Under the pieces are notes generated by a model. The model searched no databases. It saw nothing but the letters and a program-made list of their open reading frames with translations, and was not told the origin of the DNA. Shown piece by piece: positions 6,428 to 23,297 of a stretch of DNA of 26,007 nt. The position numbers and the translations under genes were made by a program. The number at the start of each line of letters is the position of its first letter. Within the stretch, counting starts at the first letter, position 1. The stretch is from a virus (Duplodnaviria; Caudoviricetes): positions 1 through 26,007 of IMG/VR virus record IMGVR_UViG_3300048629_000014. The stretch is one strand, 5' to 3'.

Positions 6428-7285
6428 CTATGTTGAAGGGATAATAATATCCTCTCCAGGTGTGTAGCCTGATTCCGTAGGTGGGTTTGTTGTACTAATA
6501 GTATAACGAACACCATATTTAACAACCTGCTCTTCCGAAGTTTGAGCTATGCTTATAACTATCGGAGAACTAGTACCTGCTTCATATTGGTATGCACCAC
6601 CATCAACAGAATATCTAACTTCGTAACCATCAGCAGAAGCTACATCATCAAAAGCAACAGATAGTTCACCTGCAACTTCGTCATAACTTGCTTGTACATT
6701 AGAAGGTCCTGATAAGTTAAATGTTAGGAACTCACCTGATTCATCAATAAGTATGTCGTCAAGTTCAGCATGACGTGCGTAGTTTAATTCCTTACCTGTC
6801 CAAGTTACCTCGTAACCTTGTAAAGAAGCACCCTCAGCACCTGTTCTACTTCCACCTGAAGTCATATCCACACCATTTTCCTCACCGTAAACTATATACT
6901 TTGGTTTACCATTACTCTCATAATTGTAAAGTTCGGCAACTATAATTTGCTTTCCTTTAGCAATGTTAGAAAGTTCTACAGAAGTATCGTGTTCTACGCC
7001 AAGCAATGTACCATTTATTGATAGTTCTACGAATGAAGTACCAAGTTTAGGGTCAGCAGACATTTCCTCTGAAGCATCCCCCAAGTCTATTGGTAAAGGA
7101 AACTTGTAGAATTTCAAAGGTTGTCCTGTTCCGTCAAGAATGTCGTATATTCTCTTTGGGTATTTAGGTGCTACTACTACATCACTTTCATAGGCTCCAA
7201 TCCAAAGAGTTTTAATACCTGACATCCCATCTTTACATAAACTTTCTCCGAAAGCTTTAGTAATATTTAGACACTTACTACCCAT
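6428..7285 (-). CDS. Tail tube protein paralogue 2 with C-terminal FN3/Ig-like domain
   Basis: Highly similar to 7290-7916 (SKCLNITKAF, SADPKLGTSFVEL, SLQGYE.WTGKE), plus a tail GPSNVQASYD...FDDVASADGYEVRY. ATG at 7285. Confidence 0.7.
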   Translation of the reverse strand: MGSKCLNITKAFGESLCKDGMSGIKTLWIGAYESDVVVAPKYPKRIYDILDGTGQPLKFYKFPLPIDLGDASEEMSADPKLGTSFVELSINGTLLGVEHDTSVELSNIAKGKQIIVAELYNYESNGKPKYIVYGEENGVDMTSGGSRTGAEGASLQGYEVTWTGKELNYARHAELDDILIDESGEFLTFNLSGPSNVQASYDEVAGELSVAFDDVASADGYEVRYSVDGGAYQYEAGTSSPIVISIAQTSEEQVVKYGVRYTISTTNPPTESGYTPGEDIIIPST

Positions 7286-7289
7286 GATA

Positions 7290-7916
7290 TTAAGGATTTG
7301 TAGGAGGTGCAACAACAATCACACTATCTCCGTTAGTTGGATCAGAAGTAAGAGTAATACCCTCTACGAAAGGAGCATAAGCTCTTTCTTTACCTGTCCA
7401 CGCAAGTTCATAACCCTGTAATGATGCAGATTCAGCTCCTGTACGAGAACCACCACCTGTCATATCAACACCGTTCTGCATACCATAAAGTATGTAAACA
7501 GGAATTTCTACCTCTCCACCTGAACCATCAGGTACAGATTGTTTGGTATAAAGTTCAGCAAGTATGATTTGTTTACCTCTCATCATACTTGTAAGTTCTT
7601 GAGCATAATCTTTACGTAACCCTAAAAGAGTACCGTTGATTGTTAACTCAACAAAACTTGTTCCTAGCTTTGGGTCAGCAGAAGCTTCTTCAACTGCATC
7701 ACCAATATCAATAGGCAAAGTAAATTTCCAAAATGGAACATCAGTACCTTCAGTTTTCACACTTGTAACAACATTCTCACTATTAAGTAATACTTCTGTG
7801 TTATGCTCAAATGCACCTACCCAAAGATTCTTGATACCTGCCATAGCTGACTTACACGTATTGCCTTCAAAAGCTTTTGTTATATTTAGACATTTGCTCA
7901 AATCTCTTATGCACAT
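7290..7916 (-). CDS. Major tail tube protein (paralogue 1)
   Basis: C...C...GIKNLW N-terminus and G.QNG.D...G...TG......GY.L...GKE pattern typical of tube proteins next to capsid genes in such phages. Start uncertain (ATG 7916 or TTG 7901). Confidence 0.7.
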   Translation of the reverse strand: MCIRDLSKCLNITKAFEGNTCKSAMAGIKNLWVGAFEHNTEVLLNSENVVTSVKTEGTDVPFWKFTLPIDIGDAVEEASADPKLGTSFVELTINGTLLGLRKDYAQELTSMMRGKQIILAELYTKQSVPDGSGGEVEIPVYILYGMQNGVDMTGGGSRTGAESASLQGYELAWTGKERAYAPFVEGITLTSDPTNGDSVIVVAPPTNP

Positions 7917-7940: not shown

Positions 7941-8456
7941 TTAATTATATTTCCAAATAAACCCTTTAGAAGATTTAGAAATACCTAATAAATTATTTTG
8001 TATTCCTGATCTACTTATTCCAACTATATGTGAAGCCTCTGTAACACTACCAAATGTATCTACAAAAACACCATCTAATGTATATTGAGAAATAGACACT
8101 TTGTATTTTTCACTTTTACCTTTGCTGTTGTTCTCGGCCCAAGTCATTAGTTGAATATTATTAAACGTATAGGGTAATTCAGACTTTATTCTATCTACAG
8201 AAGGTTTTAAATCTTTATGATAACCAGAGTCTTTCCAATCATTATATAACTCATGAAACTTAGGTTGACTATAAAGCCAATCTCTAAGTTCCTCCTTGCT
8301 ATAAGTTGGATAAGCGTGTCCTCTTTTCTTAGAACTTGCTCTCTGAGAACCATATATAACAGATATTAAACCTTTCTTAGTTCTATAATATTTAAGTTGT
8401 GTTTCACTTCTCACCTCTTCGGGTGTTATAACAATATTTTGTTTTGTATTAGACAT
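7941..8456 (-). CDS. Putative free-standing homing endonuclease (HNH-like core plus NUMOD1/IENR1 domain)
   Basis: PSVDRIKSELPYTFNNIQLMTWAENNSK nuclease-like motif. QYTLDGVFVDTFGSVTEAS...GFIWKY NUMOD1-type C-terminus. Confidence 0.75.
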   Translation of the reverse strand: MSNTKQNIVITPEEVRSETQLKYYRTKKGLISVIYGSQRASSKKRGHAYPTYSKEELRDWLYSQPKFHELYNDWKDSGYHKDLKPSVDRIKSELPYTFNNIQLMTWAENNSKGKSEKYKVSISQYTLDGVFVDTFGSVTEASHIVGISRSGIQNNLLGISKSSKGFIWKYN

Positions 8457-8537: not shown

Positions 8538-9431
8538 TTAAGGAGTTTTAGTACCAAGTACAAATCTCTCAGGGAAAGCATAAGATGCTGTATTCCACCA
8601 ATGAGCTTTGAAACGGATGTTGTTTGACAAATCAGTATCACCCATATCCTTCAATGTAACGTTATTTCTATCGTTATCAATGTCAGTTAGGTAGTACAAG
8701 TTTGAAACAAACGAACCATAAACATATCCAGGATTTGCACCAACGATACCTGCGATTTTTACACCAAGGTAATTAGTACCTTTTTCGTCAAGATAGAACT
8801 GTGGCATTGCACCATTCTTTGCAAGAGCTTGTTCGTAAACAGCTTTGTCAGTTGTGTGCATAATGATAACTGCATCAGAAGGATCAAAATCTTCAACTTG
8901 TGCTAAAGCAGAATATACTTTACCAATCTCATCTAAGATATTATCAACAGTTAAAACACCTGCTAATGTTACCTTGTTTTGAGTAGGAATATCAGTATCT
9001 GCAACAGCCTCAGCAGTAATAGCAGACCAAATGTCCTTATCAACAGCAATAGCTACTCTATGTAGGATAGCTTCTGTAATAGCAGTTGCAGCTTCTGCGT
9101 TAAGAGAACCATCTGCTCCAGGTTGCATATCGTATGCAGACCATTCGATGTTTAGTTCATCCTTACAGAACTGTAAGTTAATATTTACTGGAGATAAATC
9201 AACAGTTTTATTGTTGATGTCACCACCAGCAGGCGTGAAATCACAAAGAGAACCTTGTAAGGCATCTGTACCTACTTGGATAGTTCTCAGAGTAGTTTTA
9301 CCCTTTGCATTTTGACGGATTTGGAAAATCCCTTGAGCTAAAGATGAGCCTTTGACCATCTGTCTAGCTATAAGTTTACCAGCCTCTATACCAACAAATT
9401 GGTGAGTACTAGATTGTGACACATTAGCCAT
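8538..9431 (-). CDS. Major capsid protein
   Basis: 297 aa after protease and scaffold, followed by a strong terminator. CDFTPAG...LQFCKDEL..W, LTVDNILDEIGKVY and DLSNNIRFKA motifs. Confidence 0.8.
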   Translation of the reverse strand: MANVSQSSTHQFVGIEAGKLIARQMVKGSSLAQGIFQIRQNAKGKTTLRTIQVGTDALQGSLCDFTPAGGDINNKTVDLSPVNINLQFCKDELNIEWSAYDMQPGADGSLNAEAATAITEAILHRVAIAVDKDIWSAITAEAVADTDIPTQNKVTLAGVLTVDNILDEIGKVYSALAQVEDFDPSDAVIIMHTTDKAVYEQALAKNGAMPQFYLDEKGTNYLGVKIAGIVGANPGYVYGSFVSNLYYLTDIDNDRNNVTLKDMGDTDLSNNIRFKAHWWNTASYAFPERFVLGTKTP

Positions 9432-21164: not shown

Positions 21165-22375
21165 TTAGATAAATGAATATTTACCTACGTTTCTTTTTAG
21201 TTTATCTCTACAAGCATAAATCACACTATCGGTGTAGTGGTCGTTACCATCCTGTAGCTTATCAATACTTTCTCCATTCTTTGTAAGCCATTCTAAATCT
21301 TCAAACTCTCTTACCAAATTTGGATCATCATAGTACACATTAATAACGTAATCATTCATACTATGTACTGCTTCTTCTTTATGTCCAGGGTATTTCTTTA
21401 TGCCGAGAACTGTACACTTTGACATACCATCTAACTCTTCAATCAAACGTGGTGCCGAACTATCAGCAATAATTACTTGTCGTTGAGGTACTGCTTGGTA
21501 CATATCAGCTATTTGTTGAGTACTTAATCCTGAACCATAACCATAACCTCTAATCCAAAGCTCACCATTATAAAACTTAACATTCGATAGTGTAGTAGGG
21601 TCAGTAAATCCGTAGTCAGAACCCCAAGAACTCCACTTCTCGTTTGAAGGCCAAGTATTAACAATGTTGAATTTAGGAAAGGCTGCAAGTTCTGCGTTTG
21701 CCATGTACCTACCCTCAAGATATACTGCTCTAAACCTTGCATTCTTACTTCCTCTGTACTCTATCTCTTCAATAAGTTCATCAGGTAAGTTCTCAAGATT
21801 GTCTTTATAAGTAGAATGAATATACTTTGTTTTAGGATTCTCTAGTAATTCAGTAATCCATTGCTTTCTACGTGTAGGATTTTGTGTAATGATAATACTA
21901 CCACTTAGTAGTCGCATTCCTACTTGGCGGAGAACACCATCAGCTTCAGGACTTAGATTAAGCTCATCAAATAAAGCATAGTCTGCCTCTATTCCTGTGA
22001 ATTTATCTTCTGCATTGTGTTCACCATGACTCATGAAATAAACTACACTACCATTTGGATAAGTAAGTGTAGCTTCCTGCTTATTGAAACTGTCTTTATT
22101 CCAATAACTACCAGCTATTTGTTTATAAGGTTTGATTAAGTTCTTTTTGGTAATAGGAACTGTTAAACCTGCCACAATAAATACTAAAGGGTTCTCACTT
22201 TTCACAGCTTTTAAATGAAATAGCTGTAAAGCAGAGTACGTCTTTGAACTTCGAGTACCAGTCAACCCCCTGTGCTAAATAAGTATCTAAAGCCTGAGTT
22301 CATCGCTTGGATGTACTTTTCGCCTACAATACCTATCTTTAGCACAGGGGTAGTATTTGTATTTACGTTATTCAT
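21165..22375 (-). CDS. terL: Terminase large subunit (PBSX-like), interrupted by an 8-nt insert in Walker A; about 400 aa if joined
   Basis: Segment 1, 22375-22265, reads MNNVN...RYLFSTGG then TGA. Segment 2, from 22256, reads TRSSKTY... with Walker B YALFDE, NP motif, HSTYKDN, nuclease GSDYGFTDPT and DHYTDSVIYA. Confidence 0.85.
22267..22350. repeat. Perfect 13-bp inverted repeat in the terL 5' segment
   Basis: CCCCTGTGCTAAA (22267-22279) and TTTAGCACAGGGG (22338-22350), 58-nt spacer. Confidence 0.9.
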
Positions 22376-22908
22376 AATCTTCTTCCTTTGTTGTCTGTTC
22401 TAAGTATATGCTTCAATGTATTTACATTTATACCAAATCTATCTGCTACATCTGCTCTACCATAGTTTACTCCTTTGAGCTTTTTCTGAGTGGCAACGTA
22501 TCTTCTAACTTCTTTTACAAAATCATCAGAATATTTACCCATACCATTGTTCAAACCTTTTTGAGGTTTAGCCTTGCCGTAAATATACCCTCTTCTTACG
22601 TTTTCAGAGTGAGGTATATACCAAAGATTATCTAAATTATTGTTTAACGAATTTCCATCTTTATGGTCTATATCGTAATTACTTCCTGGTCGTTCTCCTT
22701 TAAAAGTTAAAACTTCAATTACGTGAACAGAAACTGTTTTATACTCTCCTTCATCACTTTTCAACATTGTTTTATAATAACCACCTGTGACAGCAGGTTT
22801 TAATACTTTAACCCTTCCTGTTCTTTTGTAATTAAGACTTCTAATTCTTCCAAGATTGCTAACTTCATAGCCTGTGAATCCTGGTATCACTTTCCATATT
22901 TCTTCCAT
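22372..22908 (-). CDS. NUMOD4-HNH homing endonuclease
   Basis: EEIWKVIPGFTGYEVSNLGRIRS (NUMOD4), IDHKDGNSLNNNLDNL..IPHSEN (HNH), C-terminal HTH-like segment. Its stop overlaps the terL ATG (ATGA). Confidence 0.9.
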   Translation of the reverse strand: MEEIWKVIPGFTGYEVSNLGRIRSLNYKRTGRVKVLKPAVTGGYYKTMLKSDEGEYKTVSVHVIEVLTFKGERPGSNYDIDHKDGNSLNNNLDNLWYIPHSENVRRGYIYGKAKPQKGLNNGMGKYSDDFVKEVRRYVATQKKLKGVNYGRADVADRFGINVNTLKHILRTDNKGRRL

Positions 22909-22911
22909 AAC

Positions 22912-23259
22912 TTATTCATCTAAAAATTTATCTAAATCTTTCTTGGCATCTTTGTTTTGTACTACAACTTTTAAGTTATCACCATTAATGTTTATAGTAC
23001 CTTGGTTTAGGTTCTTGGTAAATGACAAATACTTTAAAGCCGTGTCAACATCATCCATGTTATTTTCTACAGTTTCTATAGCTTTATCTCGTAAAGCAAT
23101 TCGTGCTTCTTCAACTACACCTCGTAGGTCAAACTCACGTATATACTTATAGATTGTTTCTCTACTTGCACCATAAGCTTTCACTACTTTACTTATATTA
23201 CCTCCTGCATTGTATATATTTTCTGTGAGGTCCTTCTTTGTTATATTTAATTTCTCCAT
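22912..23259 (-). CDS. Putative terminase small subunit
   Basis: 115 aa with N-terminal HTH (GNISKVVKAYGASRETIYKY) and a helical oligomerisation region; upstream of terL. Confidence 0.7.
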   Translation of the reverse strand: MEKLNITKKDLTENIYNAGGNISKVVKAYGASRETIYKYIREFDLRGVVEEARIALRDKAIETVENNMDDVDTALKYLSFTKNLNQGTININGDNLKVVVQNKDAKKDLDKFLDE

Positions 23260-23297
23260 AATATGTTTTCCTCCTTTCTGTACTATTATAAAGGTTT

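Follow-up and report, generated by a model that had tools for sequence, protein, structure and literature searches.

An 8-nt coding gap in the Walker A motif of a phage terminase gene and its candidate origin, with the adjoining HNH endonuclease gene, as a homing cassette

Introduction

How a phage can carry a large terminase gene (terL) that is broken by a stop codon and surplus nucleotides within its Walker A motif, directly downstream of a gene encoding a NUMOD4-HNH endonuclease, is the question raised by the locus described here, which lies in a 26,007-nt stretch of viral DNA (hereafter the window). Very few genes are known to use programmed bypassing, and the pairing of a nuclease with a bypass is known only from the topoisomerase genes of T4-like phages, where its origin is still called a puzzle. 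In that system, according to the available text of Manning & Atkins (bioRxiv 2022.08.31.505936), the bypass is present in all phages with the enzyme, MobA.

Results

The terL locus of the window

The virus record behind the window is 26 kb long and approximately 42% complete, and the window sequence is present in hydrothermal-vent metagenome runs; no RNA runs were found among the listed holders of this sequence. Its terL is of the PBSX type, the best named relatives being those of Dysgonomonas, Prevotella, Parabacteroides and Bacteroides phages or prophages (approximately 30%), and only 3 of the 27 window genes have a Shine-Dalgarno (SD)-like motif. Because of these terL relatives and the scarcity of SD-like motifs, we infer that the host of the phage belongs to the Bacteroidota.

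The features of the locus are collected in Table 1. The gene map and Pfam matches bore out the preliminary description of a NUMOD4-HNH gene placed between terS and terL and coupled to the latter by an ATGA overlap, the terS label being inferred from position, as this gene occupies the same place as the gene directly abutting terL in the related locus L001. The nuclease gene had also been described as ending approximately 110 nt from an 8-nt insert in Walker A; the distance from its stop to the insert is 107 nt, and the insert is absent from the closest homologue. ORF1 of terL, in which 21 of 29 residues are identical to those of the homologue P0003, ends in STGG followed by TGA, and ORF2 restarts at TRSSKT from position 22256, such that the sequence reads GGG GGT TGA, then CT GGT, then ACT CGA (GGT-TGA-CT-GGT). 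The closest homologue (P0002), with 245 of 361 residues identical over ORF2, reads STGGTRSSKTYSALQLF without a break, and exactly 8 nt (22264-22257) are therefore extra in the window. In a strain variant of ORF2, all three listed differences were synonymous. Rfam gave no match in the window, nor was a Hint match obtained in the terL pieces, and the 8-nt interruption is neither a group I/II intron nor an intein.

Table 1. Features of the window locus and of comparable loci
Feature	Position	Strand	Remarks
Probable terS, 115 aa, HTH	22912..23259	-	HTH_7 E 6e-5, at cut-off; cassette flank
Free-standing NUMOD4-HNH gene, 178 aa	22372..22908	-	NUMOD4 PF07463 E 1e-10; HNH_3 PF13392 E 2e-11
ATGA overlap, HNH stop/terL start	22372..22375	-	
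terL ORF1, 37 codons + TGA	22262..22375	-	N-terminal helix/strand, first half of Walker A
Predicted mRNA stem-loop (84 nt)	22267..22350	-	Perfect 13-bp outer arms 22350-22338 / 22279-22267
Candidate take-off codon GGT (Gly37)	22265..22267	-	Putative role
8-nt coding gap: TGA stop, CT, matched landing codon GGT (22259-22257)	22257..22264	-	
terL ORF2, 363 codons	21165..22256	-	Rest of Walker A, Walker B, nuclease domain; no stop; Terminase_6N, phrog_2
Fractured terL, split intein with NUMOD4-HNH between halves	L487 2134-4211; L488 2089-4368		
Truncated first terL start copy, HNH, second start copy, 42-nt hairpin gap in Walker A	L566 2393-3150		
Old terL start cut at Walker A, same-tail HNH, replacement start with GGGVFSGKS, ungapped	L541 350-1300		

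A 1,076-nt contig from run X2 (study P2, depth approximately 12) covers positions 22221-23296, including the insert and the HNH gene, with 0 differences, and continues for 36 letters past the insert on its short side. As this identical contig stems from a second study, the gap is not the error of a single assembly; run X2 shares year and habitat with the possible source run of the window, and the two may belong to one campaign. No gap-free allele was found among the contigs of runs X1-X3, which by their nature cannot show absence.

Two further regions of the window were recorded. A second putative free-standing endonuclease gene (7941-8456, minus strand), with matches to NUMOD1 and to PHROG endonuclease VII/HNH families, directly follows a probable major capsid gene (8538-9431) and a terminator-like hairpin. 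The adjacent genes at 6428-7318 and 7290-7916 (minus strand) both match one uncharacterized family, phrog_19091, and are possible tandem paralogues.

Intact terL genes elsewhere

The length of the P-loop was kept in 117/117 full-length terL homologues and in 142 of 149 further homologues, the other seven being four inteins at this motif and three truncated calls. Distant terL loci, among the matches listed, were single ORFs lacking an adjacent upstream NUMOD4-HNH gene in 160/160 cases, of which 147 had at least 600 nt upstream and many were near-copies. The only close relative with DNA context was L001 (50%), in which terS abuts an intact terL and neither HNH nor gap was found. The metagenome scan for close relatives gave, among the matches listed, distant intact terL genes only, GTDB scans gave no close relative, or only intact prophage terL genes and chance matches, and the GenBank phages contained no close HNH (best 38%) or terL (best 30%). 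An ENA contig of 7.4 kb (P0004) encodes a terL that is 66% like that of the window and is called from just after Walker A, as is the window protein (P0001); it may represent a second split terL in the close clade.

A hairpin closing on the take-off codon

The stem-loop predicted in the ORF1 mRNA, a feature absent from the preliminary description, closes on the first base of the candidate take-off codon. ORF1 folded at -43.4 kcal/mol (z -5.83), with 0/200 shuffles as stable, and none of 864 windows of 90 nt sampled on the minus strand was more stable than the 90 nt ending at take-off, which also surpassed 1000/1000 synonymous controls; the intact L001 folded at -8.9 kcal/mol, against -42.5 kcal/mol for the window. 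Perfect stems of at least 13 bp ended at just 2 of 5160 sampled positions. The structure appears only with the whole of ORF1, a fold started inside the hairpin giving a z of -0.19. No stable structure was detected across 22230-22300 (z +1.6), and the downstream barrier hairpin is weak in the window (z -1.5).

A second lineage with gapped and intact alleles

Scans for a GG-stop-gap-GTRS pattern, which are blind to unmatched gaps and to the second gap site described below, gave one true case among 48 terL matches in 239 loci. This was L174, a distant terL that reads GGG GGT TGA AT GGT, with the same 8-nt geometry as the window and no HNH gene. The pattern matches L188 and L208 were rejected, as they are out of frame and lie in a portal-like gene. 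The best 80 relatives of L174 (70-100% identity), from lake phages, were then taken as the lake set, of which 78 were classifiable, L461 and L465 being cut off. Half of these (39/78) carried a gap and 39 were intact; 13 gaps were at site A, after the Gly-Gly codons and thus at the codon of the window (one of 8 nt and twelve of 5 nt), and 26 at site B, after GGTRS (twenty-two of 5 nt and four of 6 nt).

Every lake gap is opened by a stop codon, which follows the take-off codon in 9/9 gap haplotypes, and in all nine the landing triplet, one gap length further on, has the same middle base as that codon (G where take-off is on Gly, C where it is on Ser), most lake gaps having a landing codon mismatched at position 1. 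The loci L407-L409 and L424 have in-frame 6-nt gaps (stop + GCA) after the Ser codon in Walker A, with the same hairpin and a landing codon mismatched at position 1. In the carriers both ORF1 and ORF2 are under purifying selection, with pN well below pS (site B ORF1 pooled, pS 0.42 and pN 0.09). The lake carriers go back to a small number of origins and were retrieved through their similarity to a terL that has a gap, and the association p-values given below are therefore optimistic.

In 19/19 distinct lake carrier sequences, which amount to few independent cases (a handful of origins), the base on which the stem closes is the first of the take-off codon, and the end point of the stem shifts by 9 nt with the gap from site A to site B. 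No such hairpin was found in the 26 distinct intact lake alleles, which reach at most 8 bp with G-U pairs. In the alignment of the site B stem 130/130 cells pair, with one two-sided change and five one-sided G-U changes; this covariation was reached by 8/500 shuffles, a result inflated by relatedness. The upstream stem of L566 likewise ends at its 42-nt gap.

The nuclease and its relatives

The window HNH is I-HmuI-like in its front half, which aligns with I-HmuI (PDB 1u3e) at E 9e-7, and has a C-terminal YGR tail resembling a helix-turn-helix; I-HmuI, which is intron-encoded, differs in its C-terminal part. The window enzyme keeps D81, H82, N90, N94 and N103, and the DH pair, N90 and N103 align with I-HmuI residues that have catalytic roles. 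At five conserved columns it has V63, E65, V66, W96 and P99, each seen in 0-3 of 119 homologues. The window HNH may, from its sequence, be decaying, and the chances that the enzyme is still active appear evenly balanced.

The set of HNH relatives comprised 80 loci among the matches listed, and the top two of these by profile score were L487 (46%) and L488 (34%), in both of which the HNH gene sits between the halves of a split intein inserted in the Walker A motif of terL. The window HNH groups with L487 and P0122-P0124 (SH-aLRT 95), and the gap of the window is 6 nt from the L487 intein site. Endonucleases housed in inteins generally cleave alleles that lack the intein, at the place where it would insert, which makes Walker A DNA the probable target of the window HNH. 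A YGR/YTR C-terminal motif was present in 9 of 54 tree rows among the matches listed; among these, the HNHs with known DNA were at a terL 5' end in 7/7 cases and with an interrupted Walker A in 6/7. Clustering of the 'Walker A interrupted' label on the HNH tree was not significant (110/500 shuffles), the starred 14-row group also includes four HNHs away from terL, the L566 HNH falls outside this group, and in an earlier HNH tree no starred group joined the window and lake HNHs.

NUMOD4-HNH genes were also found next to intact terL genes, directly before terL in L538 and L556, one gene earlier in L520, and also in L185; that of L511 precedes a terL of another type. The remaining HNH-relative loci were not at a terL detected by the terL profile. 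The NUMOD4-HNH gene of L535 is flanked by two fragments of an apparent DnaE gene, the ends of which are intein-like, and the HNHs of L543 and L564 group with it.

The nuclease gene and the terL 5' tract in the lake set

A 183-aa NUMOD4-HNH is encoded directly before terL in 5/39 carriers versus 0/38 intact alleles (Fisher p 0.055; 77 loci with at least 250 nt upstream), and after dereplication in 4/21 carriers versus 0/26 intact alleles (p 0.034). These five loci (L450, L456 and L483-485) have the order terS-NUMOD4-HNH-terL and all have site B gaps, their HNHs being only 33-34% like that of the window. Neither an HNH gene nor a detectable remnant was found in the other 34 of the 39 carriers, including 13/13 at site A, so that, among the loci compared, the window is the only one in which HNH and gap are paired at this codon. 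Open reading frames of 72-75 aa between terS and terL (L452, L453, L459, L460, L425 and L469) were considered as HNH remnants and rejected, as they had no tblastn, blastn or Pfam support. Small unrelated ORFs (72-123 aa) occur at the terS-terL junction of both carriers and intact loci (the same six loci, and L463-L482), marking an insertion hot spot.

The 51 nt before the second Gly codon were 98-100% identical to another carrier in 19 of the 21 dereplicated carriers, and the 300 nt after the gap in those carriers were 69-93% identical. For instance, L456 matches the carrier L450 before the gap (97%) and the intact L441 shortly after it (97-100% over 90 nt), the site A carriers L410 and L420 are 98% identical before the gap and 69% after, and L483 is 91% like the intact L473 after the gap, with a different N-terminus. 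These patterns suggest that the terL 5' tract, which extends to the gap, is transferred as one unit, as co-conversion predicts. Patchy presence and a co-converted flank were thus found in the lake clade; for the window, L001 alone lacks the gene, and although ORF1 is closer to P0003 and ORF2 to P0002, mosaicism of ORF1 was not significant (best p 0.076).

Discussion

Ribosome hopping across the gap

It is highly probable, judging from the predicted structure and the recurrence of the layout, that ribosomes hop the 8-nt gap to make full-length terminase. The ribosome would slow at TGA with tRNA-Gly on GGT (22267-22265), the exiting ORF1 mRNA would zip into the 84-nt hairpin, full closure of which requires forward movement of the ribosome, and the hairpin would push the ribosome 8 nt onto the second GGT, such that reading restarts at ACT and STGGTRSSKT is restored. 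Full closure should need approximately 5 nt or more of movement, which would fit the shortest gaps. Amongst the features by which bypassing is recognized, the window has a take-off codon that is matched by its landing codon and followed by a stop and, as a predicted structure, a stimulatory mRNA element 5' of take-off. The sequence AGGGGGT, 5 nt before the landing codon, has the form of a mini-Shine-Dalgarno, but also constitutes the hairpin arm and the Gly-Gly coding. Bacteroidota ribosomes ignore SD sequences (PMC7797042, in the text available), and an internal SD as a landing aid found no support, 3/27 window genes having an SD-like motif. In the available texts on other systems, pairing of the mRNA leaving the ribosome is the proposed driver of T4 bypassing (bioRxiv 2024.12.09.627546), and a hairpin lying next to and upstream of the shift site promotes forward shifts and hinders backward ones on 70S ribosomes (PMC6321510).

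Were there no hop, the locus might instead be read by a -1 shift on GGG GGT, adding Leu-Thr-Gly to the P-loop, or yield two chains through an ORF2 restart at the TTG overlapping the stop. The -1 frame is indeed open through the window gap, every 5- or 8-nt gap places an NTG in the ORF2 frame, and GGG precedes take-off in 13/13 other site A carriers versus 6/39 intact alleles; this GGG is, however, accounted for by its place in the 3' arm of the hairpin, no slippery run exists at site B, and neither mechanism is workable for the in-frame gaps of 6 and 42 nt, which have the same hairpin. One shared frameshift is likewise excluded by the gap lengths of 5, 6, 8 and 42 nt. The loop would moreover be lengthened or broken, although no natural P-loop insertion was seen in the 117/117 and 142/149 homologues, and upstream hairpins oppose -1 shifts (PMC6321510, text available), all of which makes translation without a hop very unlikely. 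A dead gene or an assembly artefact is less credible still, to the point of being extremely unlikely: the record is approximately 42% complete, so a second terL could lie elsewhere, and the evidence consists of contigs and not raw reads, but the identical contig in a second study, the intact ORF2, a hairpin far beyond chance and the same 8-nt geometry in the distant L174 stand against it, and the artefact in particular is largely refuted.

A homing cassette and its rivals

For the locus as a whole, we favour, with some reserve, the reading that the HNH gene, the first 37 terL codons and the 8-nt gap are one mobile homing cassette, in which the nuclease cuts uninterrupted Walker A DNA, the gap protects and ribosomes hop. 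Its parts differ in strength: the cassette origin is probable, a requirement of the gap itself for immunity is only slightly favoured, and the hop is better supported than the immunity role. As suggested by its relatives, an HNH group situated at the terL Walker A would arrive with a replacement terL 5' end finishing at the gap; the nuclease would cleave, in co-infecting phages, terminase Walker A DNA that has no interruption; the gap, by analogy to MobA, would block re-cutting; and the nuclease would later decay or be lost, leaving the gap. The preliminary description had advanced such a mobile cassette, and this gains from the recurrence of terS-HNH-gapped terL in the lake lineage, the movement of the 5' tract as a block and the position of the nearest HNH relatives inside Walker A inteins, but is weakened by the 34/39 carriers that have no HNH. 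Co-occurrence of the HNH gene and the insert across related genomes, which it had named as a check, held in one direction, in that the HNH never precedes an intact lake allele (0/38), and failed in the other, the gap occurring without the HNH in those same 34 carriers. For MobA the same one-way pattern applies, the bypass being kept in several phages that lost the enzyme (Manning & Atkins, bioRxiv 2022.08.31.505936, available text), and the gap without an HNH therefore weakens the cassette and does not refute it.

Two other readings accept the hop. The cassette could be real with immunity arising from the recoded terL 5' tract, the gap being a passenger or a throttle on the terminase level. 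Relative to the closest intact alleles, carriers diverge along the entire 5' tract (37-65% ungapped identity), the gap persists without a nuclease in 34/39 carriers, and L541 has a related HNH and no gap, its ungapped odd Walker A hinting that recoding alone may protect. This is nonetheless rather unlikely, as the lake HNH never stands before a recoded gap-free allele (0/38), and for MobA it was the insert that protected and not the flanking polymorphisms (available text of Manning & Atkins). Alternatively, the HNH could be an unrelated resident of a terS-terL hot spot, with gap and gene having arrived separately; endonucleases are common near terminase genes in any case (PMC10055350, text available), 13/13 other site A gap loci have no HNH, NUMOD4-HNHs occur near intact terL genes, and neither the tree clustering nor the mosaic test of the window ORF1 was significant. 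Separate arrival is unlikely, too, in that both L487, the nearest relative, and L488 sit inside this very Walker A motif and, among the matches listed, 7/7 tail-motif HNHs with DNA are at terL 5' ends and HNH adjacency is absent from the 160 background terL loci.

Beyond the cassette of the window, there is an even chance that this NUMOD4-HNH group specialises on the terminase Walker A of Bacteroidota-type phages, with interchangeable shields in the form of a split intein, a stop-led gap of 5-42 nt or a recoded motif, and that the version with a gap brings its own terL 5' end, the hairpin of which drives a minimal hop with no other signal. Taken jointly with this reading of interchangeable shields, the fully matched 8-nt case of the window might equally well be, or not be, the cleanest natural substrate for the hairpin-push model.

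Comparison with known systems

The nearest parallel is MobA/gene 60 of T4-like phages, which, in the available text of Manning & Atkins (bioRxiv 10.1101/2022.08.31.505936), shares a free-standing HNH gene that overlaps the beginning of the ORF after it, a 5' coding tract that is supplied by the element and finishes at the landing codon, a matched pair of Gly codons for take-off and landing, the former followed by a stop, and a bypass that outlives the nuclease. As there described, the MobA element splits the topoisomerase II large subunit and adds CTE/NTE tails, whereas the window HNH precedes terL and splits nothing; the HNHs are set apart by size and domains (269-279 aa versus the 178-aa NUMOD4-HNH_3 of the window); the gene 60 gap is approximately 50 nt with an A-site stem-loop, the window gap being 8 nt without one; and the T4 5' stem-loop stands 9 nt before take-off, unlike the window hairpin, which closes on the take-off codon. 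The window system would therefore work like MobA/gene 60 without being a member, with another host gene, HNH, gap and signals. The word 'terminase' has 0 occurrences in the main text of Manning & Atkins.

A short non-coding terL block is also present in Streptomyces phage Hau3 (10 nt, and 7 nt in a prophage; Antonov et al. 2023, PMC10732093), where, in the text available, mass spectrometry in E. coli supports terminase bypass when a stop occupies the A site. It differs from the window in its rare UUA trigger, proposed regulatory role and other terL family, and the terms 'HNH' and 'homing endonuclease' have 0 occurrences in that paper's text. Hau3 shows, as far as this text goes, that a short terminase bypass can work without a nuclease; its first junction, GWG|KDPLL, looks like an ATP-binding motif. 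The published fractured genes (2009, PMC2677866, text available) share the layout seen in L487 and L488 at the terL Walker A, the window having no intein; they involve GIY-YIG or Vsr-like enzymes, with HNH predicted as possible, whereas L487 and L488 carry NUMOD4-HNH. In collaborative homing of ICP1 (PMC10055350, text available), a free-standing nuclease (T5orf172) likewise lies beside a terL 5' piece and an interruption would block its site, but this interruption is a spliced intron and that of the window 8 nt. The same text describes the HK97 gp74 type as a small HNH conserved in cos-type packaging modules, from which the window HNH differs in its NUMOD4 architecture and in being absent before terL in 160/160 background loci, among the matches listed, and in L001. 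No terminase bypass tied to a homing endonuclease was found in the literature searched, which consisted largely of open-access papers and the main texts of preprints.

Significance

Gapped terL genes are called without Walker A, as in P0001, and so resemble pseudogenes. With its single hairpin and 8-nt gap, the 120-nt cassette makes a push mechanism driven by pairing of the exiting mRNA directly testable, and natural variants are available in gap length (5, 6, 8 and 42 nt) and in landing match. If the cassette reading is true, selfish nucleases would have, in addition to introns and inteins, a third general means of occupying an essential motif, the coding gap.
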